A program made the position numbers and the translations under genes. A DNA stretch of 25,326 bases from a virus (taxonomy: Duplodnaviria > Heunggongvirae > Uroviricota > Caudoviricetes). Below the pieces are notes generated by a model. It made no database searches, was not told where the DNA came from, and saw only the letters and a program-made list of their open reading frames with translations. Below, one piece after another: positions 1 to 24,436 of this stretch. The number at the start of each line of letters is the position of its first letter. Position 1 is the first letter of the stretch. Where the stretch lies: the IMG/VR virus record IMGVR_UViG_2565956724_000002. One strand, 5' to 3'.

Positions 1-1149
<1,149 letters not shown>

Positions 1150-1159
1150 AGCGCCCCTA

Positions 1160-1898: not shown

Positions 1899-1903
1899 AT
1901 GGC

Positions 1904-1929: not shown

Positions 1930-1996
1930 AATGATGTCAAGGAGTGAAGTAATGGCAACGTCTTCGTAGTTGACAAAAACTGCGGCTAAATTATAG

Positions 1997-2013
1997 CAAT
2001 CAATTAGAGCAAT
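1997..2013 (-). promoter_or_regulatory. C1 operator-like site upstream of ref (Op2-like)
   Basis: The reverse complement, ATTGCTCTAATTGATTG, matches the P1 C1 operator consensus ATTGCTCTAATAAATTT at 14 of 17 positions. Confidence 0.6.
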
Positions 2014-2145
2014 GGTAGATATTTTGTTTCTCGCGAATCACATTTTTTCACTTCAGTACCTGTGTGCTATACTCCTTCTTGATTGATTGGATGCGGAATA
2101 CAAACCCGCTCTTTTGTGCAGCCTGGCTCCTTGCCAGGCTTTTTT

Positions 2146-2457
2146 TTATTTCATCATGGAAGCTGTTAACGCTTTGGACCTTGCTGAACTGATTGAAAGG
2201 GCATTGTTTACCTTACCCAGGAGTTCGCCAAATTCCCCCATCACTCTAGTAAGCCCGCGCCGCGCTTCCTCCTCCGTTGCATTCATCACAAAATGTTCAG
2301 CACTCCGCATGCTTTTAACGGGGAACGCAACAGATATCGAGTCGATATCAGGCATCCTATCGCTCAACTTTACGGTGACAATGACAGATGGCGACAGAAT
2401 ATTAGTGCTTACAGACAGCACTACATATTTTCCGTCGATGTTGAAATCCTTTCTCAT
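2146..2457 (-). CDS. Hypothetical protein between cre and ref (cra-like by position)
   Basis: 103-aa minus-strand ORF, same strand as cre and ref. GGTGG sits just upstream of the ATG, and a C1 operator-like site lies at 2474-2490, immediately upstream. Confidence 0.5.
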   Translation of the reverse strand: MRKDFNIDGKYVVLSVSTNILSPSVIVTVKLSDRMPDIDSISVAFPVKSMRSAEHFVMNATEEEARRGLTRVMGEFGELLGKVNNALSISSARSKALTASMMK

Positions 2458-2473
2458 ATGCCACCATAAATAT

Positions 2474-2490
2474 CAAAGAATTAGAGCAAT
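2474..2490 (-). promoter_or_regulatory. C1 operator-like site between cre and the cra-like ORF
   Basis: The reverse complement, ATTGCTCTAATTCTTTG, matches the consensus through the core ATTGCTCTAAT (13 of 17). Confidence 0.5.
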
Positions 2491-2507
2491 CATTTACGCG
2501 TTAATGG

Positions 2508-3539
2508 CTAATTGCCATCTTCCAGCAGGCGCACCATTGCCCCTGTTTCACTATCCAGGTTACGGATATAGTTCATGACAATATTTACGTTGGTCCAGCC
2601 ACCAGCTTGCATGATCTCCGGTATTGAAACTCCGGCACGGGCCATATCTCGCGCGGCTCCGACACGGGCACTGTGTCCAGACCAGGCCAGGTACCTCTGT
2701 CCAGAGTCATCCTTAGCCCCGTAAATCAATCGGTGAGTTGCTTCAAAAATCCCTTCTAGGGCGCGAGTTGATAGCTGGCTGGTGGGTGATGGCGAGGCAA
2801 CACCATTTTTTCTGACCCGGCAAAACAGGTAGTTATTCGGATCATCAGCCACACCAGAGACAGAAATCCATCGCTCGACCAGTTTAGTTACCCCCAGGCT
2901 AAGTGCCTTCTCTACACCTGCGGTGCTAACCAGCGTTTTCGTTCTGCCAATATGGATTAACATTCTCCCACCGTCAGTACGTGAGATATCTTTAACCCTG
3001 ATCCTGGCAATTTCGGCTATACGTAACAGGGTGTTATAAGCAATCCCCAGAAATGCCAGATTACGTATATCCTGGCAGCGATCGCTATTTTCCATGAGTG
3101 AACGAACCTGGTCGAAATCAGTGCGTTCGAACGCTAGTGCCTGTTTTGCACGTTCACCGGCATCAACGTTTTCTTTTCGGATCCGCCGCATAACCAGTGA
3201 AACAGCATTGCTATCACTTGGTCGCGGCAGCCCGGACCGACGATGAAGCATGTTTAGCTGGCCCAAATGTTGCTGGATAGTTTTTACTGCCAGACCGCGC
3301 GCCTGAAGATATAGAAGATAATCGCGAACATCTTCAGGTTCTGCGGGAAACCATTTCCGGTTATTCAACTTGCACCATGCCGCCCACGACCGGCAAACGG
3401 ACAGAAGCATTTTCCAGGTATGCTCAGAAAACGCCTGGCGATCCCTGAACATGTCCATCAGGTTCTTGCGAACCTCATCACTCGTTGCATCGACCGGTAA
3501 TGCAGGCAAATTTTGGTGTACGGTCAGTAAATTGGACAT
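2508..3539 (-). CDS. cre: Cre site-specific tyrosine recombinase, 343 aa
   Basis: The translation MSNLLTVHQNLPALPVDATSDEVRKNLMDMFRDRQAFSEHTWKMLLSVCRSW... is essentially P1 Cre end to end. ATG confirmed at 3539-3537. Confidence 0.97.
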   Translation of the reverse strand: MSNLLTVHQNLPALPVDATSDEVRKNLMDMFRDRQAFSEHTWKMLLSVCRSWAAWCKLNNRKWFPAEPEDVRDYLLYLQARGLAVKTIQQHLGQLNMLHRRSGLPRPSDSNAVSLVMRRIRKENVDAGERAKQALAFERTDFDQVRSLMENSDRCQDIRNLAFLGIAYNTLLRIAEIARIRVKDISRTDGGRMLIHIGRTKTLVSTAGVEKALSLGVTKLVERWISVSGVADDPNNYLFCRVRKNGVASPSPTSQLSTRALEGIFEATHRLIYGAKDDSGQRYLAWSGHSARVGAARDMARAGVSIPEIMQAGGWTNVNIVMNYIRNLDSETGAMVRLLEDGN

Positions 3540-3546
3540 TTAACAC

Positions 3547-3768
3547 TCAGATAATGGTTTTAAGTAAAGTGTACAGGATCGGCTCTGCCTTTACCTGTTT
3601 ATGGTTCTCGTCATAGAAACGCCAGCGACCGCGCGTGCGTTCTATTTTCTCTTCACCGCGCGATAATGACAGTTGGCAACTATCACGATCAAACCCTTTT
3701 GCCCGCCAGTAACCACGGTTTTTCTCAAGCTCAAGATGAGTGGACACTTTAGCAGCTGAATATCCCAT
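3547..3768 (-). CDS. Small hypothetical ORF (73 aa) in the loxP-cre interval
   Basis: ATG preceded by GAGGTG at good spacing. No homology recognised, and it overlaps the expected cre promoter region. Confidence 0.25.
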   Translation of the reverse strand: MGYSAAKVSTHLELEKNRGYWRAKGFDRDSCQLSLSRGEEKIERTRGRWRFYDENHKQVKAEPILYTLLKTII

Positions 3769-3864
3769 TTTTCACCTCTGATTGATTGGTGGTGCTAAGT
3801 GCGCTACGCGAAATCTGGAGTACTAACACTGCCAACATTTCGCAGATTTTACGTAGCGCAACCT

Positions 3865-3939
3865 TGATCAAATGATCAAGTGATCACTATTTGACCTGAT
3901 AAGGTATTGAACTGTATGGATTTACAGGTGAATTGATCA
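3865..3939. promoter_or_regulatory. Cluster of four TGATCA (Dam GATC) hexamers upstream of cre
   Basis: TGATCA at 3865-3870, 3873-3878, 3881-3886 and 3934-3939. This is consistent with the described Dam-sensitive cre promoter region of P1. Confidence 0.6.
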
Positions 3940-3957
3940 TGTTCAATAACCCTTAAG

Positions 3958-3991
3958 ATAACTTCGTATAATGTATGCTATACGAAGTTAT
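3958..3991. other. loxP: loxP recombination site (34 bp)
   Basis: Exact ATAACTTCGTATA-ATGTATGC-TATACGAAGTTAT: two 13-bp inverted repeats around the 8-bp spacer. Confidence 0.98.
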
Positions 3992-4034
3992 CAGGTCAGA
4001 AGAGGAGTTTACGTCCAGCTGCGCACAAAAATCA

Positions 4035-4051
4035 AGAATTATTAGAGCAAT
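4035..4051 (-). promoter_or_regulatory. C1 operator-like site (Op99-like) in immC
   Basis: The reverse complement, ATTGCTCTAATAATTCT, matches the consensus at 15 of 17. Confidence 0.6.
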
Positions 4052-4111
4052 AAATTTTGAGAGAAAAATCCCACTCCACCAGCTAAAAACTGGATTGTTT
4101 TTCATAGTTGT

Positions 4112-4138
4112 TTGACAATTGCTCTAATAAATTATAGT
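4112..4138 (+). promoter_or_regulatory. Putative coi/c1 promoter with an overlapping C1 operator (Op99a-like)
   Basis: TTGACA at 4112-4117 directly abuts ATTGCTCTAATAAATTA (4118-4134, 16 of 17 to consensus), with TATAGT at 4133-4138 as a possible -10. Confidence 0.65.
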
Positions 4139-4372
4139 TTTGCCGCCGTTTCGTAATACGACTTTGGATTCACTATTTAATGTGTCTTCAGCGTTGTAGA
4201 GCGGCTCAGAAGGAAATGAGCAAACAGGGAAACCTTATACAACGGCATTACAGCTATGCATTGCTCATCTTACACACAGCGCAATGTTGTTAGATTACCC
4301 CAGCATGGATCATGGGTGAAACAGTAGGTCAGAGCTTCAGGCTCTGTGTTGTCAATACAGTGAGACATAATT

Positions 4373-4582
4373 ATGGCTTTCATTCAACCAACCATCGACG
4401 ACGTTAGACATTGCTCTAACGCTTTATCTGTAGACCCTGCCGAAACCGACGCTGCCCGCGCCATTGCTGAACACTACTCAAAGATATCCAATCAGGAGTA
4501 CCGCATCACCCAAGACGACCTGGATGACCTCACTGACACAATCGAATATCTCATGGCAACTAACCAGTTAGACTCACAATAA
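4373..4582 (+). CDS. coi: Coi, C1 inactivator, 69 aa
   Basis: 69-aa ORF directly upstream of c1, the length and position of P1 coi. Sequence MAFIQPTIDDVRHCSNALSVDPAETD... Confidence 0.85.
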   Translation: MAFIQPTIDDVRHCSNALSVDPAETDAARAIAEHYSKISNQEYRITQDDLDDLTDTIEYLMATNQLDSQ

Positions 4583-4692
4583 ATGCACTAATAAATCTAT
4601 TATTTTTGTTTGATCCCTCTATAATATAGGTCAGTAATGACCGGTTTTCTCAGCCGGGCGTTATTGACCATGTCAATTCTGGAGGAGGATCA

Positions 4693-5544
4693 ATGATAAA
4701 TTATGTCTACGGCGAACAACTGTACCAGGAGTTCGTCAGCTTCAGGGATCTCTTTCTAAAAAAAGCTGTTGCACGCGCCCAACACGTTGATACAGCCAGC
4801 GACGGTCGTCCTGTACGCCCGGTTGTCGTTCTACCGTTCAAAGAAACTGACAGCATTCAGGCTGAAATTGATAAATGGACTTTAATGGCGCGGGAACTGG
4901 AACAGTACCCAGACCTCAATATCCCAAAGACTATTTTATATCCAGTGCCTAACATCCTTCGCGGTGTGCGTAAGGTTACAACTTATCAGACAGAAGCTGT
5001 GAACAGCGTCAACATGACCGCTGGCCGCATTATTCATCTGATTGATAAGGACATTCGCATCCAAAAAAGCGCGGGGATCAATGAGCACAGTGCGAAATAC
5101 ATAGAGAACCTGGAAGCAACAAAAGAGCTAATGAAGCAGTACCCGGAGGATGAAAAATTCCGTATGCGCGTACACGGCTTTAGCGAAACAATGCTGCGCG
5201 TCCACTACATTTCCAGTAGCCCTAACTACAATGATGGTAAATCAGTTAGTTACCATGTGCCACTGTGTGGCGTGTTTATCTGCGATGAAACTCTCCGTGA
5301 TGGAATTATCATCAACGGTGAATTCGAAAAAGCAAAATTTAGCCTTTATGACTCCATAGAACCGATCATCTGCGACCGCTGGCCGCAAGCAAAAATATAT
5401 CGCCTGGCAGATATTGAAAATGTAAAAAAACAAATTGCCATCACTCGCGAAGAGAAAAAGGTTAAGTCAGCCGCATCAGTTACGCGCAGCCGTAAAACCA
5501 AGAAGGGGCAGCCAGTAAACGACAACCCCGAAAGCGCGCAATAA
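4693..5544 (+). CDS. c1: C1 repressor of lysis, 283 aa
   Basis: MINYVYGEQLYQEFVSFRDLFLKKAVARAQ... matches P1 C1 in sequence and length. Strong RBS GGAGGAGG upstream of the ATG at 4693. Confidence 0.95.
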   Translation: MINYVYGEQLYQEFVSFRDLFLKKAVARAQHVDTASDGRPVRPVVVLPFKETDSIQAEIDKWTLMARELEQYPDLNIPKTILYPVPNILRGVRKVTTYQTEAVNSVNMTAGRIIHLIDKDIRIQKSAGINEHSAKYIENLEATKELMKQYPEDEKFRMRVHGFSETMLRVHYISSSPNYNDGKSVSYHVPLCGVFICDETLRDGIIINGEFEKAKFSLYDSIEPIICDRWPQAKIYRLADIENVKKQIAITREEKKVKSAASVTRSRKTKKGQPVNDNPESAQ

Positions 5545-5549
5545 ATTAT

Positions 5550-5567
5550 GCCCGGCATCAACCGGGC
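5550..5567. terminator. Hairpin between the convergent c1 and antirepressor-like genes (possible bidirectional terminator)
   Basis: Stem GCCCGG / CCGGGC with loop CATCAA, flanked by moderately U-rich sequence on both strands. Confidence 0.45.
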
Positions 5568-5576
5568 ATTCTTCCA

Positions 5577-6695
5577 TTATTCAGCCGCCACCGGTTTTAA
5601 CAAGCCAGCATCGAGCAGTTTACGCGTCAACCACTGCTGGCCTTTACCCGTTAATTGAGGCGTCAACCGTATCTGGTAGCCATCTTCATCATCCAGCACC
5701 ACTTCTTTCACCGTGAAATACCCCGCGTTGATGTACTGCTGGAACGGCACATTTTTACGTCCACCGGACGCTATCAGGATGCCGTTCTCCCGTAACCAGA
5801 CAAACAGCGCGTTTTGCTTAAGTCCAACAACCTTTGCAAAATTCCCAATCAGGATCCCTTTAGCTACTGATACCCGGTCGGCAAAATCGACTTTAGGAGC
5901 GGCGGCCACCAGCTGCTGATTTAGCTGGTGGGCTTTCTGTTCCAGAAGTTGCTTTTGTTCAGCCAGTTCGGCAGCCAGGCGTAGGGCTTCAGGAAGCGTC
6001 TGGGGGATTGCGATCGGTTGCTGTTCTTTTTGTCGGAAGTAGCTGTCTTCCAGTTTTTCAAAGAATGCCCATGCCTGATCGGTTTCGAGCATTTTAGCGT
6101 GGCGGGCTGCGCCGCGTTCTGTCCAGAGGGTGAGTGAGCGAACATTGCGAGCAATTTTTACAGAGTAGTTTAAAGCTACTCTGTGCTTCAACTCGCGCAA
6201 TGATTCTCCTTCAACTTTGAAAAAGTGCTTCCCTTCAACAAAGCGTACTTTGTTCTCATGATGATTTTGGCGAATACGGATTGTTTCTGTCCCATACCCT
6301 CTAGCAAGAGTCTCGGTTGTCACTACACGCACTCCCTGCCATTCCAGAACGGGAATTTCATCAGACTGATTCTGAACAACCACCAGCTCCGATTCCTGAA
6401 CTGAAGGTGCATGAATTTTTTCTGATTTAACGTTAGTTGCTTTCATTCTGTGTGCCTCCTTGCGTGATTCGGCTGCGGCGGTTGCGTAATTCAGATGCCC
6501 CTGTTCGAGCAGGTATTCGCGGATATCAGACAGCAGGATGCGGTGAACTGCGTTCTTGTCCTTTCTCCGGTAAAGTTGTTTGGTGATCATGAAGTAGTTG
6601 GCAATAACGCCCGGTATATCCCTAGTACTGATACAGGCAGTGTGCTGTTCAATTGCCTCGATCATCTCTTCACGGGTAACTAATGACGTTCTCAT
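5577..6695 (-). CDS. Phage antirepressor-like protein (ORF6N/Bro-N-like central region, KilA-C-like C-terminus), 372 aa
   Basis: The central segment VLEWQGVRVVTTETLARGYGTETIRIRQNHHENKVRFVEGKHFFKVEGESL and the C-terminal segment ...LFVWLRENGILIASGGRKNVPFQQYINAGYFTVKEV... resemble these domain families from memory. The ATG overlaps the upstream ORF's stop (ATGA). Confidence 0.6.
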   Translation of the reverse strand: MRTSLVTREEMIEAIEQHTACISTRDIPGVIANYFMITKQLYRRKDKNAVHRILLSDIREYLLEQGHLNYATAAAESRKEAHRMKATNVKSEKIHAPSVQESELVVVQNQSDEIPVLEWQGVRVVTTETLARGYGTETIRIRQNHHENKVRFVEGKHFFKVEGESLRELKHRVALNYSVKIARNVRSLTLWTERGAARHAKMLETDQAWAFFEKLEDSYFRQKEQQPIAIPQTLPEALRLAAELAEQKQLLEQKAHQLNQQLVAAAPKVDFADRVSVAKGILIGNFAKVVGLKQNALFVWLRENGILIASGGRKNVPFQQYINAGYFTVKEVVLDDEDGYQIRLTPQLTGKGQQWLTRKLLDAGLLKPVAAE

Positions 6696-6913
6696 AGTCC
6701 CTCCTGAGCAGAAGCGTTAACAGGGAGGCACCAGTAACTGAGAGAATTGCGTGAATCAGTGGAAAAACGGGCAGAGAAAATACATGGGGCGTCAGGAAGC
6801 TGAGAATGGGCCTCATCTTCTGTCGGTGCAATAACGAAGTGATAGTGACGTTTTTGGCAGGAGTAAAAGCGCCAGATAAATTCAGGATGAATTGGGGTAG
6901 GGACAGTAGCCAT
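6692..6913 (-). CDS. Small hypothetical protein (73 aa), translationally coupled to the antirepressor-like gene
   Basis: AAAGGAGG lies about 8 nt upstream of the ATG at 6913. The stop overlaps the downstream start by 4 nt. Confidence 0.5.
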   Translation of the reverse strand: MATVPTPIHPEFIWRFYSCQKRHYHFVIAPTEDEAHSQLPDAPCIFSARFSTDSRNSLSYWCLPVNASAQEGL

Positions 6914-7098
6914 AATGGCAGCCTCCTTTGACTAAGTTAAGGAGCTACCGCGTGAGGTCTCAATCTCAATGGCGGTAGCACTGACTGGGTTGAGACTACC
7001 GGCGTCAAAGGGAACCGGCCTGCCTTTCGGCAGCCCAGCCAGCACTACCATTGATTTCGGAGCTAAACGCTACGTATGGCTGTGCGATGGCATGACAC

Positions 7099-7120
7099 AA
7101 AAAAAGACGCTTTCGGCGTC
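7099..7120 (-). terminator. Intrinsic terminator, minus strand (pacB 3' end and/or attenuator in the leader of the downstream operon)
   Basis: Stem GACGC / GCGTC (7106-7110, 7116-7120) with loop CGAAA on the minus strand, followed by U7 (plus-strand A7 at 7099-7105). Confidence 0.6.
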
Positions 7121-7244
7121 TGTGTCGCCTTTGACATTATCCGGGGTCTCAATCCCGGCACCCGTTTTAATGAGGTGCCTGATAAGCATAAACCGAAAAT
7201 GCCTCAAGGCGCAAGAGGTCAGGTTCAATGTAACATCGGCAGTC

Positions 7245-7261
7245 AAAAAACACAATTTATT
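7245..7261 (-). promoter_or_regulatory. C1 operator-like site just downstream of the pacB stop
   Basis: The reverse complement, CTTGCTCTAATAAATTG, matches the consensus at 15 of 17. Confidence 0.6.
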
Positions 7262-8463
7262 AGAGCAAGTGTTTATTCATTAAGCCATGCCAGAGCTTCA
7301 TCAACCTGCGCTTCGTCTTCGACGCTAAGCACTTCGTCCTGGGGAACATAATCCGCCAGCATAGCGAAACAATATGTATCCCAATGGTCTGGTGAGTGCA
7401 GGTTGAGTTTTTTCTTCATATCCTCCTTACTCATCACCTTCCATTGACCTGCGGAGTTAATCCCTACAGGGATTTTCGACGCTTCCTCAATAGTTTCATT
7501 ACCCTTATCCAGTCTCATACGACCAGATTTTACGGCCTCTGCGGCTTGAACGTTGGCATAAGCACGTTTATCAAAGTACAGGCTCTTATCTTCACGGCTA
7601 TGCATCTTTTTACCCCAGCGTATACGCTGTACGGTAATACCATAATACTCGTACATCAGATCCGCCGTTGCTTTACCCAGGCCATCGCCGTCTATCGCTA
7701 TGGTGATATTGGGGAATCGCTCAGGATTACATTCTGCGAAAATTTTGGCGGCAAGCTGCGTTTCTGTAACGTCTGTGTATTCCAGCATTCGATAGTTGAT
7801 TACACGGCGTTTATTTCGCTGGCCGGACACCATCATGATATTGATAAAGGACTTATCCCGTCCTGTACCACCAGCAACGTCCACACATGCAAGCCAGCCC
7901 CATCCTTTGGCAATCTTGACTTTCCGCCGCGTCGCACGTTCAACCTCATCACGTCCAAGAAGGAAGCCGTCCTGTAATTTAGGGAATAGGCCGCGTACCT
8001 TAATCATGTACATAGGGTTATCACGCCCGCCGTACTCCGCCAGCTTCATTTTGATAAATTCTGACGTTACCAGCGGTGATTCCTCACTGTTAAGCGTGAT
8101 CGCCGTATAAACGCCATCTGGGTTACCAGGACGCTTGGCCAGTTTATGGTGAGTATCGTAGAAATAGCCGCTTGGGCGTGTAGGCTGTGACAGTAATAAG
8201 ATGCGGTTATCCTGTCCGGTAAGAGCACCGGTGATGATACCGAAAGCTCTATCACTGACACCGGAGGCTTCATCGATAATATACAGAAGATGATCTGCGT
8301 GTTCACCGGCGAGAACTTCTTCACTTCCCAGACGAAAGCCCTTCGGTACTACAGTCCATACACCTTTACCAGTAGACTGGCCCCCTGAATCTCCAGACAA
8401 CCAGTATCACTTATTTAAGTGATAGTCTTAATACTAGTTTTTAGACTAGTCATTGGAGAGCAG

Positions 8464-8829
8464 ATGATTGATGTCTTAGGACCGGAGAAACGCAGACGGC
8501 GTACCACACAGGAAAAGATCGCAATTGTTCAGCAGAGTTTTGAACCGGGGATGACGGTCTCCCTCGTTGCCCGGCAACATGGTGTAGCAGCCAGCCAGTT
8601 ATTTCTCTGGCGTAAGCAATACCAGGAAGGAAGTCTTACTGCTGTCGCCGCCGGAGAACAGGTTGTTCCTGCCTCTGAACTTGCTGCCGCCATGAAGCAG
8701 ATTAAAGAACTCCAGCGCCTGCTCGGCAAGAAAACGATGGAAAATGAACTCCTCAAAGAAGCCGTTGAATATGGACGGGCAAAAAAGTGGATAGCGCACG
8801 CGCCCTTATTGCCCGGGGATGGGGAGTAA
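8464..8829 (+). CDS. insC: IS2 OrfA (InsC)
   Basis: [56 protein letters not shown]... Confidence 0.93.
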
Positions 8830-9692
8830 GCTTAGTCAGCCGTTGTCTCCGGGTGTCGCGTGCGCAGTTGCACGTCATTCTCAGACGAACCGATGACTGG
8901 ATGGATGGCCGCCGCAGTCGTCACACTGATGATACGGATGTGCTTCTCCGTATACACCATGTTATCGGAGAGCTGCCCACGTATGGTTATCGTCGGGTAT
9001 GGGCGCTGCTTCGCAGACAGGCAGAACTTGATGGTATGCCTGCGATCAATGCCAAACGTGTTTACCGGATCATGCGCCAGAATGCGCTGTTGCTTGAGCG
9101 AAAACCTGCTGTACCGCCATCGAAACGGGCACATACAGGCAGAGTGGCTGTGAAAGAAAGTAATCAGCGATGGTGCTCTGACGGGTTCGAGTTCCGCTGT
9201 GATAACGGAGAAAAACTGCGAGTCACGTTCGCGCTGGACTGCTGTGACCGTGAGGCACTGCACTGGGCGGTCACTACGGGCGGCTTCAACAGTGAAACAG
9301 TACAGGACGTCATGCTGGGAGCGGTGGAACGCCGCTTCGGCAACGAGCTTCCGGCGTCTCCAGTAGAGTGGCTGACGGATAATGGTTCATGCTACCGGGC
9401 TAATGAAACACGGCAGTTTGCCCGGATGTTGGGGCTTGAACCGAAGAGCACGGCGGTGCGGAGTCCGGAGAGTAACGGCATAGCAGAGAGCTTCGTGAAA
9501 ACGATAAAGCGTGACTACATCAGTGTCATGCCCAAACCAGACGGGTTAACGGCAGCAAAGAACCTTGCAGAGGCGTTCGAGCATTATAACGAATGGCATC
9601 CGCATAGTGCACTGGGTTATCGCTCGCCACGGGAATATCTACGGCAGCAAGCCAGTAATGGGTTAAGTGATAACAGGTGTCTGGAAATATAG
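8787..9692 (+). CDS. insD: IS2 OrfB (InsD) transposase
   Basis: [34 protein letters not shown]... contains a DDE-type integrase core and overlaps insC in the usual IS3-family arrangement. Confidence 0.93.
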
Positions 9693-10092
9693 GGGCAAAT
9701 CCAACCAGTAACCTCATAGAAAGCGGTTTCTGTCAGAACAAAATAATCAGCAAGCCATGGAAAACGGCTGGTGGCAGTAGCCCAGTTTATCTTGATGTAC
9801 TTGAATATACCGGTCATTACCTGCTGAATTTTGTTCGCAACGATAATGGCGCGGGCACCGGGATACATGATTATGAACAACATGATCATGATAGAAGTCA
9901 TGTCTGATTTCCCGGTACCGTGACCAGACGAAACAGATGTCTTGCTACCCTGTTCCTGCACAGACTCAATAATCAGATCCTGCTGCCAGGTAGGTGTTTT
10001 GCCGAACAAAACATCAGCGGCCGCAATCCAGTCATAACGATATAGCGCCACCAGCTCGCGCCAACGTGGATCCGTTACGCAACTTCTGGCCA

Positions 10093-10694
10093 TTAATCAT
10101 CATCCCCGTATAGCTTGCGGGTAACTTCTTCGTCTTCCTCCTCGTCTTCGTCCAGGTCTTGTTCCAGCCATGGGTCGTTTGATACACCTTCAGTATCAAC
10201 ATCTCCATAACCGCCTGTATCAACGATATCGGCGATTTCTTCCCTACGCTGCTCAATCCACAATGCGGCATCGGCGCGGCGGTTGGCGGCCCGTTCTCGC
10301 GCAACTTTGTCCAGATCTTCAAGAGAAGGGCCACCGACGGCTGTTTGCCTTTCCTCATCATCGGTATTGGTCTTAGGAGCACGCAGATCGGCTTTGATTT
10401 GCTCCAGCATCAGGGGCGGCACTTTCCCGCCATGCGCCTCGATGAATTCAGCTGCTTCCAGCACTGACCAGTTATTTTCACGCTTTCGTTCGTACTGTCA
10501 TCAATCAAAACAGACGAATACTTAGACACAGCGATAGCTTTTAAGCGCAGATAAACATCGCGCTTATCGACATCCAGATGCGGGTATTCCTTTTCAAGAA
10601 TTGCTGCGAGTTCTTTCGCTGATAGAAGAGATTTAGTGCGGATCATGTAATTCGCAATCTCGTACGATGTTATTCGTGAGTGATTTATTTCCAT
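10093..10694 (-). pseudogene. Small terminase-like gene immediately upstream of pacB, split across two frames (frameshift)
   Basis: One ORF (ATG at 10694, stop at 10410) has an HTH-like N-terminal part; a second, in another frame (open from 10497 to the stop at 10093), has an acidic tail DEDEEEDEE. They overlap by about 90 nt, and the final stop overlaps the pacB ATG (TAATG). Confidence 0.4.
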
Positions 10695-10794
10695 GAAGTG
10701 GCGTCCCTGCCAGTTAAGTAACATCCTGTCACCTACTGATTAGCCCATGTCAACTAATCAACGTGGAATATAATACCATCGATTAAAGAAATAG

Positions 10795-10811
10795 CAATAC
10801 ATTAGAGCAAT
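10795..10811 (-). promoter_or_regulatory. C1 operator-like site upstream of the small terminase-like gene
   Basis: The reverse complement, ATTGCTCTAATGTATTG, has the core ATTGCTCTAAT (14 of 17). Confidence 0.4.
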
Positions 10812-10812
10812 T

Positions 10813-11856
10813 TTATCTAACGCTCGACGAGTAACTTGTGATAGCGCCGACTCCAAGCGCGTAATCAAAGAACAATCGTTGATGCATCGCCAGCCTACCG
10901 TGCGTCTTCTCCCAATTATCGCGGTCACGCTCAATATCACGCTGGCATGACTGGCACAGAGGAATTGCGTAAATGTCATGCGCGCATAATCGACTATGAC
11001 GAACGATATAAGGCGTAATGTGAGCGCCAGCTCCCGCAGCTCCACAGCCACAGCATGGACGGGAAGCCACAAAGTCCATGTACTCGGGCAATTTTAGCGA
11101 TTGAAGTTTTGGTATTTTGAAATGCGCCATACCTGGGTCGGAGTCAACATCCACAGGGCATACTTTTGCACGCATCGGCGCGGCGCGTTCTTCCATCATC
11201 TGAACATATGCTGTAGCGCGATCGTCATACGGGCGAATATCCGCCTCTTTCAGAGGTCCGCTATCCTGCGGAGCAGCCTTCATCTTATTTATTGATATGC
11301 GGCAGACTTCTTCCGGCATCAGGTGCATCATGTTACGCATGAAAGCCCACCAGCACAGCTCCTGAATACTTAAATCATGGCTATCTGAAAGGCCCATTTC
11401 CTGACGGGCGACATCCAGTATCCAGTTAACGCGATTATTGTGCAGCGTTTCTTTCAGCTCATTAAAACCACGCATCCGGTAATGGTTATCGTGATGCCAG
11501 CACAACAACACCGCGCTATTGTCTCGTTCAGCGTGGACAATATGGTTGTCACACCAGCTACGATCTGCGGCCTGGCATTGCCCCTCTTTCCTGCGCAACC
11601 ACGCCACCAGCGCGTCAATTCCACCAATACGGCGAAACAGTTCATCGCTGTTAAAAAACGGCTGCAACGCCTCATTTGTTGCTATAGTTTGCTCGGAAGC
11701 AACGAGGCCGTCGTCCATGTGCTCGATTAACTCACGCGGCACCGGCTCCATAATAAATTTACGGCCAGCCTCCACCAGCTTTCTGACCTCCTGATCCACT
11801 TTGAACGTGGCGAGGCCAAGTTCTTTCTGTACAAAGGGAGTAATTACGGCTTTCAC
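10813..11856 (-). CDS. Cys/His-rich hypothetical protein (347 aa) with HNH-like motifs, upstream of the terminase genes
   Basis: GTG start with RBS AAAGGTG. Motifs [22 protein letters not shown] and CCGCG...HSRLCAHD...PLCQSC. It is not P1 PacA as I recall it, and no TGATCA pac-type cluster lies in this region. Confidence 0.45.
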
Positions 11857-11883
11857 ATCACACCTTTAATCACTGATTGGGCT

Positions 11884-12063
11884 TTATATGCTGCCCGGCA
11901 TTCTCTGTTTAAGCACAACCATTTCCTGACGGCATAACACAGCAATAGCGGTCCTGGCACCAATTTGCTTACCAGCCAGGTATTGCTTTACCTCGCGGCG
12001 ACTCACGCCATCAAGAAGCATCTTTAACGCTTCACGGGACAATTTGTTGTATTTGCGTGCCAT
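11884..12063 (-). CDS. Small hypothetical protein downstream of doc (pdc-like by position)
   Basis: 59 aa from the ATG at 12063 (MARKYNKLSREALKMLLDGVSRREVKQYLAGKQ...), directly after the doc stop. Confidence 0.4.
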   Translation of the reverse strand: MARKYNKLSREALKMLLDGVSRREVKQYLAGKQIGARTAIAVLCRQEMVVLKQRMPGSI

Positions 12064-12067
12064 TAAT

Positions 12068-12448
12068 CTACTCCGCAGAACCATACAATCTACGTAACGT
12101 GTCGGCGACAGAAGATACAGATATCTCTCCGGTCGCAGCCCCTACGGTAAGGTCTGCCAGTTCAGGTGAATCAAATACCTGCACCCCGTTACGGCGTAGA
12201 AATAACAGCGCACTGTTTAGCGCGGTACGCTTATTGGCATCATTGAATATATGCCCTCTCGCTGTAGCCACCAGGTAGGTGGCGGAGACTTCGAAAAGGT
12301 CGGTGATCTCTTCGTAGGCAACTCTGGCCTGAACTCTCCCGATAATGGCCTCTGCCCTACCCGGATCTGACATTCCCGGCAGGCCGCCGTAGCGGTTTAT
12401 ATTCGCATCATGAAGCGCAATAAGTTCTTCCGGTGATATATGCCTCAT
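12068..12448 (-). CDS. doc: Doc toxin (Fic-fold kinase) of the phd-doc addiction module, 126 aa
   Basis: [43 protein letters not shown]... matches P1 Doc nearly exactly. Confidence 0.95.
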
Positions 12449-12669
12449 TATCGGTTAACCAGTTCCTTGTTGGTGGAGTCCAGGGTGTCAAACAGGGATG
12501 CAAATTCAGCATCCAGCGCCGCTTTTTTGTAGGCTTCGAAAGTAGCCTTGCTGACAATTACTGCTGGCTCACGGCCTCTGCGGGTGATTTCAACCTCTTC
12601 CCCGGCCTCAACATTGTTGAGCACTTCAGAAAGGTTGCCGCGCGCGGTACGGAAGTTAATGGATTGCAT
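12448..12669 (-). CDS. phd: Phd antitoxin, 73 aa
   Basis: [49 protein letters not shown]... matches P1 Phd. Its stop overlaps the doc start. Confidence 0.95.
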
Positions 12670-12710
12670 AAATACCTCGTGTACTCGTTATGTGTACACA
12701 ATTATAAACT
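12670..12710 (-). promoter_or_regulatory. phd-doc promoter/operator region with a GTGTACAC palindrome
   Basis: Palindrome TGTGTACACA at 12691-12700 and a GTGTAC half-site at 12679-12684, immediately upstream of phd. Confidence 0.5.
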
Positions 12711-12845
12711 TCACAGGCATAAAGCACCAGCACTTTGCGGCTTAACAAACCTCTAGGCAGGTCATTCGTAGCCTAATGTCCGAACTGCTAAAGCATCCAA
12801 GTTGCTGTAGAATCACCGCCAATTACATAAGCCTGAAATAAGTGG

Positions 12846-13463
12846 ATGAAAATGACAAGTATTCAACAACGTGCAGAGCTTCATCGTCAAATCTGGCAAA
12901 TTGCTAACGATGTCAGGGGTTCGGTCGATGGATGGGATTTTAAGCAATACGTTCTGGGCGCACTTTTCTACCGTTTTATCAGCGAAAATTTTTCCAGCTA
13001 TATTGAAGCCGGTGATGACAGCATCTGTTATGCGAAACTGGATGACAGCGTAATTACTGATGACATTAAAGACGATGCCATCAAAACTAAAGGCTACTTC
13101 ATCTACCCCAGTCAGCTTTTCTGCAACGTAGCGGCGAAAGCAAATACCAATGACAGACTGAATGCAGATTTAAACAGCATCTTCGTTGCTATCGAAAGTT
13201 CTGCTTACGGTTATCCTTCAGAAGCTGACATCAAAGGTTTGTTTGCTGATTTCGATACCACCAGTAACCGCCTGGGTAACACCGTTAAAGATAAAAATGC
13301 CCGCCTGGCTGCGGTTCTGAAAGGGGTTGAAGGGTTAAAACTTGGTGACTTCAACGAACATCAGATTGACCTGTTCGGTGATGCCTATGAGTTCCTGATT
13401 TCTAACTATGCGGCAAATGCCGGTAAGTCAGGCGGTGAGTTCTTTACACCGCAGCACGTCTCC
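12846..13463 (+). pseudogene. hsdM: Type I restriction-modification methyltransferase HsdM, N-terminal fragment only (type IC / EcoR124-like by recollection), cut off by IS1
   Basis: [44 protein letters not shown]... ending ...[16 protein letters not shown], which reaches the HsdM FxTP motif. The ORF then runs straight into the IS1 terminus at 13464. Confidence 0.7.
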
Positions 13464-13518
13464 GGTGATGTTGCCAACTTACTGATTTAGTGTATGATGG
13501 TGTTTTTGAGGTGCTCCA

Positions 13519-13794
13519 GTGGCTTCTGTTTCTATCAGCTGTCCCTCCTGTTCAGCTACTGACGGGGTGGTGCGTAACGGCAAAAGCACTGCCGGACATC
13601 AGCGCTATCTCTGCTCTCACTGCCGTAAAACATGGCAACTGCAGTTCACTTACACCGCTTCTCAACCCGGTACGCACCAGAAAATCATTGATATGGCCAT
13701 GAATGGCGTTGGATGCCGGGCAACCGCCCGCATTATGGGCGTTGGCCTCAACACGATTTTACGTCACTTAAAAAACTCAGGCCGCAGTCGGTAA
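13519..13794 (+). CDS. insA: IS1 InsA
   Basis: [43 protein letters not shown]... Confidence 0.93.
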
Positions 13795-14216
13795 CCTCGC
13801 GCATACAGCCGGGCAGTGACGTCATCGTCTGCGCGGAAATGGACGAACAGTGGGGCTATGTCGGGGCTAAATCGCGCCAGCGCTGGCTGTTTTACGCGTA
13901 TGACAGGCTCCGGAAGACGGTTGTTGCGCACGTATTCGGTGAACGCACTATGGCGACGCTGGGGCATCTTATGAGCCTGCTGTCACCCTTTGACGTGGTG
14001 ATATGGATGACGGATGGCTGGCCGCTGTATGAATCCCGCCTGAAGGGAAAGCTGCACGTAATCAGCAAGCGATATACGCAGCGAATTGAGCGGCATAACC
14101 TGAATCTGAGGCAGCACCTGGCACGGCTGGGACGGAAGTCGCTGTCGTTCTCAAAATCGGTGGAGCTGCATGACAAAGTCATCGGGCATTATCTGAACAT
14201 AAAACACTATCAATAA
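13713..14216 (+). CDS. insB: IS1 InsB reading frame (expressed as an InsAB' fusion by frameshifting)
   Basis: ...[65 protein letters not shown]... Confidence 0.9.
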
Positions 14217-15424
14217 GTTGGAGTCATTACCCGAATGATGGTTGCCCATACATCAAAGGACTGGTTAACCGGCAGAGCGATGTCAAAGGTGTCGGTCGCA
14301 AGAGTACGCCAGATCATGATGCGAAGACGCAGCATATCCTGTTCATGAGACAGGTATTCCTTCAGGGTGCGGAACTGTAGGGAACCCAGGTCCAGACCAA
14401 ATTCACGCTGTGCTTCATACGCCGCCTGTACCGTGTGCTCAGCCGCGATAACGAACTGGCTTGGGAACAGGGTGTATTTCTTCATTTCGTGGTTGATCAG
14501 CGGGATCAGCTCAGGAGCGGCTTCAATATTGATTTCCGTCTCAATTGCGATCTCAGTGCCTTTATCCGGCGCTTTGGAGAACGACAGGGAAATCTGACCA
14601 ATGTTGTAGTTCAGAGAGCAGGTAACAGTGATTTGCTCACCAGCAGCATTAGTAAACGAGTGAAGTAGGCTGCCGGAACCGTTATCAACAACAGACTTAA
14701 TACGGTTAACGTAGATGTTAGTGCGACCTTTTCGGATTGGTACATTCTGGCCTTCGAAGTCTTCCATCTTGAAGGTTGCGGTTTTGCTGGTGCCATCGGA
14801 GCTTGCCACCAGCACATAGCGGCGGCGTAACTGGCTGTACACACCGACGGATTGCATGTCCAGAACATCACCAGCAGCATAAGAACCAAAAGAGGAACCT
14901 GCCACGTTAAAGACTTCATAGATGTCGGACTGGTCACGCGTAACCGGAATGAAGGTACACGCATCAGCGGTAGCTGCCCCCAACTGAACAGGCAGGATCA
15001 TCGCGAGGAATAAAGGCAGACGCATAACACCGTCAGAAACGCTCATCATCTCTGCTGCGACGGATTCCAGCATCGCTTTATTAGTGGCATCCATGCTATT
15101 GCGGGTGGACTCAATCAGGCAGTTTTCCAGCGTCTGGTGGCAGGAGGCCAGAATTTCCGGACGCGGCATAGATTTATGTGCTGCGGCGTAGTCAGCCAGT
15201 GCACTTGCCCACGCGGTAGCAATTTGAGCGGTGGCATTATCAGAGATACCCGCAAAAATTGGGTCTTTACGTGCAGCTTCAAGGATAGATGCGGCACGCG
15301 CGGCATCATCTTTGATGAATTGGTTATCAGTACCGAACTGTGCTGTACTTGCCCAGCCAAGAACGGCTTTAGAGCGTTTTGCGATATCTGCAATACGATT
15401 CTGGTATTCGCGTAAGTTACTCAA
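14210..15424 (-). pseudogene. Capsid-like structural protein gene (P1 gene 23-like by position next to par), with its 3' end lost at the IS1 junction
   Basis: Probable TTG start at 15424 with RBS AAGGAAG. The last ~6 codons and the stop lie inside the IS1 terminus. The identity is inferred from position and composition only. Confidence 0.35.
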
Positions 15425-15483
15425 GTTACTCTTCCTTAAACACAAGGCACTTGTGTGAATCCCTTTTCGGAAGAGATTTTATT

Positions 15484-15583
15484 GAAAGTCACTTGTTGAC
15501 TTTCTCGCGAAAAGTAATTTTTTGTGCGGGGAAGTGGACGGTGAATGCAGGCGTTAAATCGTGGGAATTTCAGTCTGAAATTC
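15484..15583. promoter_or_regulatory. parS: parS-like centromere region downstream of parB, with two perfect palindromes
   Basis: GAAAGTCA-cttgt-TGACTTTC at 15484-15504 and GAATTTCAG-t-CTGAAATTC at 15565-15583. The ATTTCA-type half sites resemble P1/P7 parS heptamers. Confidence 0.5.
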
Positions 15584-15679
15584 TCCTAAAAAACACATGC
15601 AAATCATAATGTTAGCAATGAAATTGGTGCGGGACATTTTAGGAAGGGGAGGGGCTAACACCACCTCCCACCAGCGGGA

Positions 15680-16645
15680 TTATTCCCCAGCAGACATTTT
15701 CCCAATGATTTTTTTTATTGCTTCGTCAATTTCAGTTTGCACTTCAGACGGGAGTCTGGAGAACTCGTAGGCGACAACCCGTTTTTTCGGATCGGACTTC
15801 TTTCGAGCATATTGGCGACGGTCAGAGAAGTCTCGCAGCTTCTCAACCACCACAGATTTAACCGGCGCGGGCTTCAGGCTTTTGCTTTCCGCTTTGAAGA
15901 TAGCCAGTATCTTCGCTTTATCCTCTTTCGCGCCCTCAGTCTCTGCAATTCGTTCGCGCACCGTATCAACCAGCTCTTCAATAGGCACGCTTTTAGCGTT
16001 GGCATCCTCGGAGATCTGGAGCAGTAACTGGTAATCTGGCAGGGCGAGATCGCTGGCAACAGGGAAGACAGCAATCATCTCATCCGGCACCGCTGCCGCC
16101 TGGAACGCGCGCGTAACTTTAGCCTTTGAAATGTTCTCAGCGCGGGCGATCTCTTCTTTGGTCATGCTCTTACCATACATAACCTCGAAGCGTTTACCCA
16201 GTTCGCGCAGGGTGTGTTCGCGGGCTGTCTGGATATCAATGGCCAGCTGGCGTGCATCCGCCAGGCTGATCTCATCTTTCGTCACCAGAATCTCAAATTT
16301 CGTTTCATTGAAGATACACGCAGCGCGGCGACGTGATCCGTCCAATACCTCAATGCGCTCCCCAACCATACGACCGATAGCCGGGAAGAACTGTTGCAAT
16401 TTAATGGTGCGGGAAATATCGCTTACCGACTCAGGGGTGAGCAGAGACTGATCGCGGCCGTTAACTGCCGGGTCAACGAACGTGCGCGACTCAATCTCAC
16501 CACTCAGCACAACGGTAAGCAAAAATTTAGCCTGGCGGCCAGATTTTAGGGTAAAGGTTTTGGTGCCTTCACTGCCTTCAAGCATGCGAGCAAACTCGGA
16601 GCTATTCTTGCCCAGCACTCGTCCACGGGAAACTATTTTTTTCAT
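15680..16645 (-). CDS. parB: ParB partition protein (P1/P7 family, divergent from P1)
   Basis: Conserved ...RTFVDPAVNGRDQSLLTP...QQFFPAIG...ILDGSRRRAA..., immediately downstream of parA and overlapping it by 4 nt. Confidence 0.85.
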   Translation of the reverse strand: MKKIVSRGRVLGKNSSEFARMLEGSEGTKTFTLKSGRQAKFLLTVVLSGEIESRTFVDPAVNGRDQSLLTPESVSDISRTIKLQQFFPAIGRMVGERIEVLDGSRRRAACIFNETKFEILVTKDEISLADARQLAIDIQTAREHTLRELGKRFEVMYGKSMTKEEIARAENISKAKVTRAFQAAAVPDEMIAVFPVASDLALPDYQLLLQISEDANAKSVPIEELVDTVRERIAETEGAKEDKAKILAIFKAESKSLKPAPVKSVVVEKLRDFSDRRQYARKKSDPKKRVVAYEFSRLPSEVQTEIDEAIKKIIGKMSAGE

Positions 16646-20417: not shown

Positions 20418-21183
20418 GTCTTCCTCCTGAAGAAAAATTATCAATGAAGTCCTTTGTTACTGTGCCGCTTTGTTTAATTCATCAATAACAGAATCAGGAA
20501 CCAAAGCGGCAACTGCGCTGGCTGTGCTGACCTTATTTGCTGATGCTTCCGCAAGCGCGGTACCGATAGCATGGTTATAAGCAGTTATGGCTACGTTGGC
20601 GCTTTCATTCGCTCGTTCATACTGCTGTTGTAACGCAGTTGTGGGCGCTGTTGTCTGGTTGAAAACAACCCCAAACTGTTCAGTTGCTACTTTCAGAGAT
20701 TCAATTTGCTCTTCTGTTAGTGCTGGTGGGGGAGTGGCAGTGCCGCCGCCTGAACCAGAGCCTGACGAGCTTCCTGAGCCAGTGTTAAGGGTCTGGTTAA
20801 TCTCCCCCATAGCAGCGACTAAACTTGATGTATTAAGCGCGTTAACAGCGTCCTCAAGCGATTTAGTAATATTCACATCACCAATGGCAATAGAGATCGG
20901 CAGTTCTGAAACTTCTCGCTCATTAGCACGGCAGTAAACATCCCAACCAATATCGAGTTGAAGCAGCATTGACAGATCTGCATAACCAGCCAACAGGTCC
21001 GCGTGCTTAGTTGCCAGTTCTCCAATGTTCGTTAAGCCGGTTGTGGTTGTTCTTATCGTTGAAACATAGCTGGTAATAGTGTCGGGATAGACAATTGTAT
21101 GTAAGCGTCGTCTGAGTACCGTCTGGTCCCGAATCCAGGATCCTGTAACTTAAGCACCCACTTATTTTGCAGGTGGACACCTC

Positions 21184-21567
21184 ATGCGCGCTAAAGAAAG
21201 ACTTCCCCGGAAACACTATTCCCCTGAATTCAAAATGGAACTGGTCAGGCTGGCTCTTGAAGAAGAAGGCAGTATTGCCGCACTGGCCCGGAAACATGAC
21301 GTCAATGATAACCTGCTCTTTAAATGGATAAGGCTCTGGCAGCGTGAAGGGCGGGTCTGTCGGCCCCGAAAAAACTCATCGTCGCTTCCTGCCCTGATAC
21401 CCGTGCAGCTTCAGGCGGGCTCTTCTCTCCCAACCTTCGAACTACCATCCTGCTCTCCTCCCGCTACCTGCCACATAAAATGTCGGGGAGGAGAAATAAC
21501 ACTGACTCATCCCTCTGCTGAACTCATGAGCACTGTCCTGCGCGAACTGATGCGGGGGCCGGTATGA
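21184..21567 (+). CDS. tnpA: IS66-family accessory protein TnpA (orf1)
   Basis: First ORF of the IS66-type triplet; HTH-like N-terminus. Confidence 0.75.
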   Translation: MRAKERLPRKHYSPEFKMELVRLALEEEGSIAALARKHDVNDNLLFKWIRLWQREGRVCRPRKNSSSLPALIPVQLQAGSSLPTFELPSCSPPATCHIKCRGGEITLTHPSAELMSTVLRELMRGPV

Positions 21568-21911
21568 TAAATCTTCCCGCAGGCACAAAAATCTGGCTGG
21601 TTGCCGGTATCACCGATATGCGCAACGGCTTCAATGGCCTCGCCGCAAAGGTGCAGACCGCGCTGAAAGATGACCCGATGTCCGGCCACGTCTTCATCTT
21701 CCGGGGACGCAGCGGCAGTCAGGTAAAACTGCTCTGGTCCACCGGCGATGGTCTGTGCCTGCTGACAAAGCGACTGGAACGTGGTCGCTTCGCCTGGCCC
21801 TCAGCCCGCGATGGCAAAGTGTTCCTGACGCCGGCGCAACTGGCGATGCTGATGGAAGGTATCGACTGGCGACAGCCAAAGCGGTTACTGACATCCCTGA
21901 CCATGTTGTAG
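21564..21911 (+). CDS. tnpB: IS66-family TnpB (orf2)
   Basis: MINLPAGTKIWLVAGITDMRNGFNGLAAKVQTALKDDPMSGHVFIFRGRSGSQVKLLWS... is the typical IS66 Orf2 sequence. Overlaps tnpA by 4 nt. Confidence 0.85.
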   Translation: MINLPAGTKIWLVAGITDMRNGFNGLAAKVQTALKDDPMSGHVFIFRGRSGSQVKLLWSTGDGLCLLTKRLERGRFAWPSARDGKVFLTPAQLAMLMEGIDWRQPKRLLTSLTML

Positions 21912-21960
21912 CGCTCTTTATCCTGGTTGTCGCAGAATAAGCCTGGTAAAATACAGGCTT

Positions 21961-23496
21961 ATGAACGATACCTCTTCTGACGACATCCTTCTGCTGAAAC
22001 AGCGCCTGGCCGAACAGGAAGCGTTGATCCACGCCCTGCAGGAAAAGCTGAGCAACCGGGAACGCGAAATAGACCATCTGCAGGCGCAACTGGATAAGCT
22101 GCGCCGGATGAACTTCGGCAGTCGTTCCGAAAAGGTATCCCGCCGTATCGCGCAAATGGAAGCTGACCTGAACCTGCTGCAGCAGGAAAGCGATACGCTG
22201 ACCGGCCGGGTGGATGACCCGGCAGTGCAGCGCCCGCTGCGTCAGACCCGCACCCGCAAACCGTTCCCTGAGTCACTCCCACGGGATGAGAAGCGGCTGC
22301 TGCCGACTGAGCCGTGTTGCCCGGAGTGCGGTGGTTCGCTGAGTTACCTGGGTGAGGATGCCGCCGAACAGCTGGAGCTGATGCGCAGCGCCTTCCGGGT
22401 TATCCGGACAGTCCGTGAAAAGCATGCCTGCCGTCGGTGCGATCGCATCGTTCAGGCCCCGGCTCCTTCGCGCCCCATCGAACGGGGGATCGCCGGACCG
22501 GGGCTGCTGGCCCGAGTGCTGACCTCAAAGTATGCAGAGCACACACCGCTGTATCGCCAGTCGGAGATCTATGCCCGCCAGGGTGTAGTGTTGAGTCGTT
22601 CTGTACTGTCGGGCTGGGTGGATGCGTGTTGTCGTCTGCTGGCACCGCTGGATGAAGCCCTTCAGCACTATGTCCTGACCGACGGCAAACTCCATGCTGA
22701 CGATACGCCTGTCCCGGTGCTGTTGCCGGGCAATAAGAAGACGAAGACCGGGCGCTTATGGACGTACGTTCGAGACGACCGCAACGCCGGATCAGCGCTG
22801 GCCCCCGCAGTGTGGTTCGCTTACAGCCCGGACAGAAAAGGTATCCACCCTCAGACCCATCTTGCAGGCTTCAGTGGCGTACTGCAGGCTGATGCCTACG
22901 CCGGGTTCAACGAGCTCTACCGCGACGGCCATATAAAGGAAGCCGCGTGCTGGGCCCATGCCCGCCGAAAAATCCACGATGTTCACGTCCGTACCCCGTC
23001 AGTCCTGACGGAGGAGGCGCTGAAACGGATCGGCGAGCTGTATGCCATCGAGTCGGAGATCAGAGGTAAAAGAGCAGAGGAACGGCAGGCAGTCCGGCAC
23101 CAAAAAGTGCTGCCGCTGCTGGCGTCACTGGAGGGGTGGCTGCGGGAGAAACAGAAAACCCTCTCAAGGCACTCAGAACTGGCGAAGGCGTTCGGGTATG
23201 CGCTGAACCAGTGGCCGGCGCTGATCCGCTATGCAGAAGATGGCTGGGTGGAGGTGGATAATAACATTGCCGAAAACGCCCTACGACGGGTCAGTCTGGG
23301 GAGAAAAAACTGGCTGTTCTTCGGCTCGGATCATGGTGGTGAGCGCGGTGCGTCACTGTACAGTCTTATCGGGACGTGCAAATTAAACGGCGTGGATCCG
23401 GAACGCTATCTGCATTATGTACTTGATGTCATCGCCGACTGGCCTGTGAACCGGGTGGGTGCTCTGCTCCCGTGGCGGGTTACTCTGCCTGCCTGA
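21961..23496 (+). CDS. tnpC: IS66-family transposase TnpC (511 aa)
   Basis: N-terminal coiled coil, a CxxC...CxxC zinc motif (CCPECG...CRRCD) and a DDE region, as in IS66 transposases. Confidence 0.85.
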   Translation: MNDTSSDDILLLKQRLAEQEALIHALQEKLSNREREIDHLQAQLDKLRRMNFGSRSEKVSRRIAQMEADLNLLQQESDTLTGRVDDPAVQRPLRQTRTRKPFPESLPRDEKRLLPTEPCCPECGGSLSYLGEDAAEQLELMRSAFRVIRTVREKHACRRCDRIVQAPAPSRPIERGIAGPGLLARVLTSKYAEHTPLYRQSEIYARQGVVLSRSVLSGWVDACCRLLAPLDEALQHYVLTDGKLHADDTPVPVLLPGNKKTKTGRLWTYVRDDRNAGSALAPAVWFAYSPDRKGIHPQTHLAGFSGVLQADAYAGFNELYRDGHIKEAACWAHARRKIHDVHVRTPSVLTEEALKRIGELYAIESEIRGKRAEERQAVRHQKVLPLLASLEGWLREKQKTLSRHSELAKAFGYALNQWPALIRYAEDGWVEVDNNIAENALRRVSLGRKNWLFFGSDHGGERGASLYSLIGTCKLNGVDPERYLHYVLDVIADWPVNRVGALLPWRVTLPA

Positions 23497-23698
23497 CCAG
23501 CTTCACTTCGTCAATACGGTTCTCACTGCACGCTTACAATTGTATCCAGAATTAATCCGGTCAATTCTTCTGCAAGCAGTTTTGCTGTGTTAGCACTGTT
23601 TCGTGCCGATGTTATGGCACCAGGTGTTTTCATCCCACCGGCGGCGGCCAATTTTTTATATGCGGATAACTGGTAGTCTTTTTCCAGCATGATATCTC

Positions 23699-24151: not shown

Positions 24152-24436
24152 ATGCAGATGGAGCTAATAAGCCGCAAAGAGTTCGATAGCCGTGTAACCA
24201 GCGGTGAACTCGACAACTTGCAGGCTATCAAGGTGAAAGAAGGCTTTTGCCTCATTGGGAATCAGAGCGGAACAAATCGCGTTTTTATGCTTCGCCGTAC
24301 GGATTTGAAGCCATTTGTCTGGAAGAACGAAATTGGTCCCAGCTCATACGCTCAAACTAGGGGGTGCCACAACCTGGCCTTTTTCTACAAAAACGAGCTT
24401 TCTGTGGTTGATATTCAAGGGTTACAACATGTTTAA
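24152..24436 (+). CDS. Hypothetical protein upstream of the rdgC homolog (uhr-like)
   Basis: The start is taken at [11 protein letters not shown], with GGAG 7 nt upstream. No function recognised. Confidence 0.4.

Follow-up and report, generated by a model that had tools for sequence, protein, structure and literature searches.

A type IC hsdM remnant of the EcoR124 family truncated by IS1 beside phd-doc in a P1-derived IncY plasmid

Type IC hsd cassettes at the phd-doc border

Type IC restriction-modification (R-M) loci are reportedly flanked by P1 DNA, an observation said to go back to Tyndall, Lehnherr, Sandmeier, Kulik and Bickle in 1997. In type I enzymes generally, HsdM requires AdoMet-binding and catalytic motifs and assembles as M2S1 before HsdR can act. 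Within the P1 record (GenBank NC_005856), the misc_feature at 87969-88647 is annotated as sharing 98% identity with the upstream region of the EcoDXXI hsd locus, and those at 84263-84482 and 84399-84482 are annotated as corresponding to DNA located downstream of this locus and of R124/3 hsdR. Type I R-M systems together with missing head genes have been described for P1-derived IncY plasmids such as pFec10 and H15 plasmid A (PMC7984374), and likewise for pSvP1 (PMC6906374).

A 6.2-kb hsdM-hsdS-hsdR cassette takes the place of the P1 genes pmgT-humD beside phd-doc in many phage-plasmids of the P1 type and many IncY plasmids derived from P1; some IncF plasmids contain it as a P1-derived piece. 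The IncY plasmid pCE1537-E encodes phd, hsdM (1557 nt), hsdS (1206 nt) and hsdR (3117 nt), followed by pap and pmgS. Its HsdM and HsdR aligned end to end with the EcoR124 proteins (7bst, 1156 bits; 2w00, 2274 bits). Alignment of pCE1537-E with P1 showed that a cassette of 6,178 bp (positions 9687-15864 of locus L002) replaces P1 positions 84483-87969 (pmgT-humD). One cassette border, 9686/9687 of L002, equals position 12745/12746 of the sequence analyzed here and P1 87969/87970; the other lies at P1 84482/84483. These borders coincide with the misc_features that mark homology to the flanks of EcoDXXI and R124/3. The corresponding site of H15 plasmid A is occupied by hsdM, a short hsdS of 627 nt and hsdR; this hsdS (locus L006, 5333-5959) has approximately half the usual size. 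The phage phi456 shows the same gene layout at the site, with uninformative product names. Furthermore, doc-phd is joined to the 5' part of hsdM in 639 PLSDB records and is contiguous with a near-complete hsdM in 614 records when coverage of at least 80% of the 2341-nt doc-phd-hsdM query is applied. Judged by these sequence matches, the site is common and truncated hsdM copies are a minority.

The window, i.e. the whole 25,326-nt stretch of DNA analyzed, originates from the draft scaffold KI538793.1 (109,782 bp) of Escherichia coli UMEA 3148-1 (assembly GCA_000495075.1) and shares the scaffold coordinates. The scaffold contains N gaps, and the window end adjoins an N run (25327-26691). Homology to P1 and P7 on the doc-phd side ends at approximately 12745-12751 of the window, where humD is located in P1. 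As in the P1-flanked type IC hsd loci, phd-doc lies on the hsdM side at the annotated border 87969/87970; the cassette of the window differs from these loci in that IS1 interrupts it 718 bp from its start (100-bp leader and 618 bp of coding sequence). Compared to EcoR124I/II of plasmid R124 (hsdM-hsdS-hsdR), HsdM residues 1-206 are identical, whereas the window retains only the 5' 40% of hsdM, without motifs I and IV and without hsdS and hsdR.

The collinear backbone of H15 plasmid A is 99.9% identical to that of the window, and both replicons share the IS3-family insertion in pacB, the lpa/pacA deletion, the junction between IS1 and the truncated gene 23 (23') and the location of phd-doc beside hsdM. 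H15 plasmid A differs in possessing an intact hsdM together with hsdS and hsdR, whereas hsdM of the window is cut and the block of gene 23, par and rep is inverted relative to phd-doc. Certain IncF plasmids, e.g., CP088487.1, feature the order pdcA-doc-phd-hsdM'-IS1 as found in the window, but their IS1 is inserted 321 nt deeper in hsdM and adjoins unrelated cargo on its other side. The IS1 truncations of hsdM in the IncF plasmids and in the window are independent events. In CP088487.1 (locus L007; IncFIA/FIB/FII, conjugative), the P1-derived pdcA-doc-phd-hsdM' piece adjoins a gene pair encoding a nucleotidyltransferase and an S-4TM effector as well as ccdAB, and a small HsdR fragment is located upstream of this piece.

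A sequence-only reading of the window had proposed that the element once carried, and has since lost, a different defence module. Its first part is sustained: since close relatives (pCE1537-E, H15 plasmid A and phi456) hold hsdM-hsdS-hsdR at exactly that place, the lineage did carry the system, which appears to be inactivated in the window. Regarding the second part, the data establish disruption rather than loss, because the remaining hsd genes may be located elsewhere on the 110-kb scaffold. Moreover, the position next to phd-doc is not a surprising second defence site but the one at which type IC hsd loci classically reside.

Identity and extent of the hsdM fragment

The product of the fragment (hsdM') is identical in 206 of 206 residues to residues 1-206 of the EcoR124II M protein (PDB 7bst_D, E=3e-136), in agreement with the earlier proposal that an EcoR124-like type IC HsdM N-terminus of approximately 206 aa, extending up to an FxTP motif, is encoded here. 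Motif X (FFTP) is kept at residues 199-202, and the fragment ends just past it. Pfam matches comprised HsdM_N (PF12161, 64 bits) and positions 1-40 of 311 of N6_Mtase. The NCBIfam equivalog TIGR00497 (hsdM) matched with 255.6 bits over profile positions 1-209 of 515, exceeding its cutoff of 242.75 bits, and PADLOC assigned the fragment to MTase_I. Based on these sequence matches, the fragment certainly belongs to the HsdM family by descent. Motif I (DPAAGSG) at residue 225 and motif IV (NPPY) at residue 302 of intact HsdM are missing from hsdM', which stops at residue 206.

Translation can start at the ATG at 12846; the second in-frame ATG at 12852 was chosen as start in RefSeq and GenBank. 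The open reading frame 12846-13490 on the plus strand comprises 214 codons, 206 from hsdM and the final eight from the left inverted repeat of IS1, after which the frame stops (13488-13490). With the first base of IS1 at 13464, the end of the fragment given previously (13463) is exact. The features of the window are compiled in Table 1.

Table 1. Annotated features of the window, ordered by position.
Feature	Position	Strand	Remarks
IS5-family (ISKpn26-like) element	1-649		partial at scaffold start
185-aa ORF	619-1176		no Pfam match; P1 has mat there
ref	1338-1976		RecA-dependent nuclease
cre	2508-3539		
c1	4693-5544		
Antirepressor gene Ant	5577-6695		ORF6N and KilAC domains
IS3-family element in pacB	8375-9703		orfB 8787-9692, rve domains
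lpa, truncated	10410-10724		104 aa; Pfam BPP1_LPA positions 1-64 of 131
doc toxin gene	12068-12448	-	Pfam Fic/DOC; 98-99% nucleotide identity to P1 and P7
phd antitoxin gene	12448-12669	-	Pfam PhdYeFM_antitox; 98-99% nucleotide identity to P1 and P7
Native leader of type IC hsd cassette	12746-12845	+	P1-backbone/cassette junction at 12745/12746
hsdM' pseudogene	12846-13463	+	codons 1-206 of EcoR124-family type IC HsdM
IS1, complete	13464-14231	+	768 bp; Pfam InsA and DDE_Tnp_IS1; terminal inverted repeats
IS1-encoded tail GDVANLLI and stop	13464-13490	+	closes chimeric ORF of 214 aa (212 aa from second ATG)
Gene 23 (major head protein, P1/P7), 3'-truncated	14232-15424	-	cut by IS1 right end
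IS66-family element in P1 backbone gene	21101-23535		ORFs of 127, 115 and 511 aa
rdgC-like gene, premature end	24429-24995		188 aa; followed by transposase fragment up to 25326 (locus L025)

Intact HsdM, HsdS and HsdR were searched against the 25-kb window by tblastn; the sole match corresponded to HsdM residues 1-210. Among the genes called at scaffold positions 25-35 kb (to 34,995), none was hsd-like; this region contains transposase fragments, mobH, mobI, gaps and IS1 fragments. Exact look-ups of the predicted 3' HsdM fragment (starting with MHGQ) in three alleles returned two that are on record, neither of them on KI538793.1.

As noted in the sequence-only reading, hsdM' is divergent from phd, which is encoded on the minus strand. 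The entire native cassette leader of approximately 100 bp is kept upstream of hsdM'. A promoter-like sequence of its own had also been attributed to the fragment; this part of the reading has weak support. A standard sigma-70 scan of 12670-12845 yielded no promoter, and the best candidate under lenient settings (CTGCTA-17-TAGAAT, 12785-12813) agrees in 8 of 12 positions, a weak match.

Single-nucleotide differences over the window positions 11800-13463 form a mosaic. Up to 12054, no difference from H15 plasmid A occurs, but 20 differences from this plasmid lie between 12055 and 13226, and positions 11995-13021 are identical to pCE1537-E. This pattern suggests that doc, phd and the beginning of hsdM lie in a tract of homologous recombination.

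IS1 junctions and the origin of the break

The break in hsdM is caused by IS1, which had been left unmentioned before. The element shows the characteristics by which IS1 is recognized, namely a length of 768 bp, imperfect terminal inverted repeats of approximately 23 bp (GGTGATGTTGCCAACTTACTGAT and GGTAATGACTCCAACTTATTGAT) and the insA-insB' arrangement with an A6C frameshift site. The insA gene spans 13519-13794, the insB frame extends to 14216, and the frameshift site at 13768 would give rise to a fusion product of 232 aa. The left end of IS1 coincides with the first base of hsdM codon 207. As this junction coincides cleanly with the last base of the IS1 end, its reality is beyond doubt.

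Simple insertion of IS1 is expected to leave a direct target duplication of 8-9 bp. A 9-bp duplication is absent here, the left flank reading CACGTCTCC and the right flank CGAATGATG, which argues for a rearrangement instead of a simple insertion. In the native hsdM of relatives, CACGTCTCC (ending with GTCTCC) is directly followed by AAGCTGATTGC. On the right side, IS1 adjoins gene 23', which keeps about 397-398 of 568 codons plus seven IS1-derived codons, with the stop at 14210. Gene 23' is 98-99% identical at the nucleotide level to gene 23 of RCS47, P7 and JL22, and its product is identical to P7 Upf57.5 in 396 of 397 residues. Beyond gene 23', the window encodes P7-type parS, parB, parA and repA.

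An identical IS1/gene 23' junction was found in E. coli H15 plasmid A and in LT883139. In H15 plasmid A, the other side of this IS1 is occupied by the holin gene lydA, and an intact hsdM is found at another place of the plasmid. In the comparison with P7, the doc-phd-hsdM' flank aligns to the minus strand, whereas the 23'-par-rep flank aligns to the plus strand; in the comparison with H15 plasmid A, window positions 1-13463 align to its plus strand and IS1-23' to its minus strand. The two IS1 flanks are hence inverted relative to each other in comparison with P1, P7 and H15 plasmid A, pointing to an IS1-associated inversion or recombination between two IS1 copies rather than to a simple deletion.

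The hsdM'-IS1-23' arrangement was found in none of the RefSeq complete E. coli genomes. Exact scans for the junction between hsdM codon 206 and IS1 returned no match in GTDB representative genomes, IMG/VR and JGI metagenomes, and a scan of IMG/VR for the IS1/23' junction was likewise empty. A megablast search of PLSDB with a 240-nt junction query resulted in two-piece matches only, in which IS1 is located at least 321 nt further into hsdM. The chimeric 212-aa product corresponds to GenBank ESP38871.1 and is recorded on one contig only.

Based on these results, it is very probable that the locus represents an EcoR124-family type IC hsdM remnant cut by IS1 after codon 206, that it is inactive, and that IS1-associated inversion or recombination is the likely origin of the break. 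Two routes may be envisaged. An IS1 copy located at gene 23', like the one in H15 plasmid A, could have transposed intramolecularly and replicatively into hsdM in the inversion mode. Alternatively, homologous recombination could have occurred between the IS1 at gene 23' and an inverted IS1 copy inserted in hsdM. Both routes would result in hsdM'(1-206)-IS1-23' without a flanking direct repeat. Both also predict that the remaining 'hsdM-hsdS-hsdR is located beside a second, inverted IS1 elsewhere on the plasmid, provided that no later deletion removed it. The reciprocal junction would then read, from the lydA side, GGAGTCATTACC followed by CACGTCTCC and AAGCTGATTGC, representing the IS1 right end, the 9-bp duplicate and hsdM from codon 207 onward.

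Simple loss, i.e. an IS1-mediated adjacent deletion that removed 3' hsdM, hsdS, hsdR and all further sequence as far as the middle of gene 23 and left nothing else of the system on the replicon, is a possible but rather doubtful explanation. It would agree with the missing target duplication and with the restriction of hsd sequence to the 5' fragment in the 25-kb window, no hsd gene being called in the next 10 kb. Furthermore, the lineage features other large IS1-linked deletions, and the IS1 of H15 plasmid A joins the holin gene to 23'. However, an adjacent deletion in one step preserves the orientation of the flanks and is ruled out by their inversion compared to P1, P7 and H15 plasmid A. 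A deletion proceeding from the IS1 at 23' toward hsdM would, moreover, keep the 3' part of hsdM and not the 5' part. A secondary deletion following the inversion is possible.

The inversion itself could be a scaffolding choice, because the linkage crosses a 768-bp multicopy repeat in a draft scaffold. In that case, a simple IS1 insertion with a 9-bp duplication and hsdM-hsdS-hsdR directly downstream would have been joined by the assembler to the 23' flank of another, inverted IS1 copy. The N gaps at other IS elements of the draft scaffold, the holin-IS1-23' order in sister scaffolds and in H15 plasmid A, and the lack of hsdM'-IS1-23' in any other database record are compatible with such an artefact. 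Nevertheless, it is considered unlikely, as IS1 is sequenced completely and gap-free within the scaffold. Real recombination of inverted IS1 copies gives the same structure, and hsdM is interrupted at codon 206 either way.

Coding capacity, annotation and the surrounding replicon

Motifs I and IV are missing and hsdS and hsdR are absent downstream, in the window as well as among the genes called at 25-35 kb; neither a methylase nor a nuclease is therefore predicted to originate from this locus, and hsdM' is best treated as a pseudogene. It is improbable to a high degree that HsdM' (212-214 aa, comprising HsdM_N, motif X and eight IS1 codons) is expressed from the native leader and has a function of its own, for example a dominant-negative effect on type IC enzymes. 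The native 100-bp leader and the start codon are intact and the reading frame is closed by an in-frame stop eight codons into IS1, which would permit expression. However, the promoter match is weak, and truncated HsdM fragments are very common by-products (clusters of 787 and 1639 members). In addition, there is no sign of selection or spread, because the hsdM'/IS1 junction is confined to one contig. A transcribed HsdM' acting as a dominant-negative or decoy subunit that hinders the assembly of type IC enzymes is equally far-fetched; if true, it would represent IS1-generated anti-restriction. That the fragment derives from a methyltransferase outside R-M systems or is a chance ORF has a negligible probability and is ruled out by the 100% identity to a crystallized HsdM over 206 residues and the TIGR00497 match above cutoff, and hsdS and hsdR are contiguous in relatives.

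An IS1-truncated type IC hsdM beside phd-doc is an ordinary and documented kind of gene wreck that is already known. On its own, the present case carries little weight: it is a further instance of IS1 eroding a P1-derived IncY plasmid and a further example of the long-known linkage of type IC hsd cassettes with the P1 phd-doc region. Regarding annotation, ESP38871.1 was deposited as 'type I restriction enzyme EcoR124II M protein' and should read hsdM pseudogene, and the replicon should not be counted among the carriers of a type I defence system.

The window also lacks features of a functional P1-like phage: gene 23 is cut, lpa is truncated and pacB is interrupted by the IS3-family element. 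Since gene 23 is truncated, capsids cannot be built; the replicon is therefore a plasmid and should be left out of counts of inducible P1-like phages. A 1.1-kb deletion at 10491/10492 fuses pacA' to the truncated lpa. Over the compared region 9073-12100, which includes this deletion and the right end of the IS3-family element, identity to H15 plasmid A amounts to 99.97%. The IS66-family insertion is not present in H15 plasmid A, the sequences on both of its sides being otherwise 99.9% identical to the window. Beyond the gap at 25327-26691, ISKpn26', mobH and mobI (IncA/C-like mobilization genes) follow as in H15 plasmid A. In P1, the immI region is presumably located far from c1. In the window, Ant and an icd-like ORF directly adjoin c1 (4693-6913), and the same layout was observed in p2-S1-ZIM-01-A (L003).
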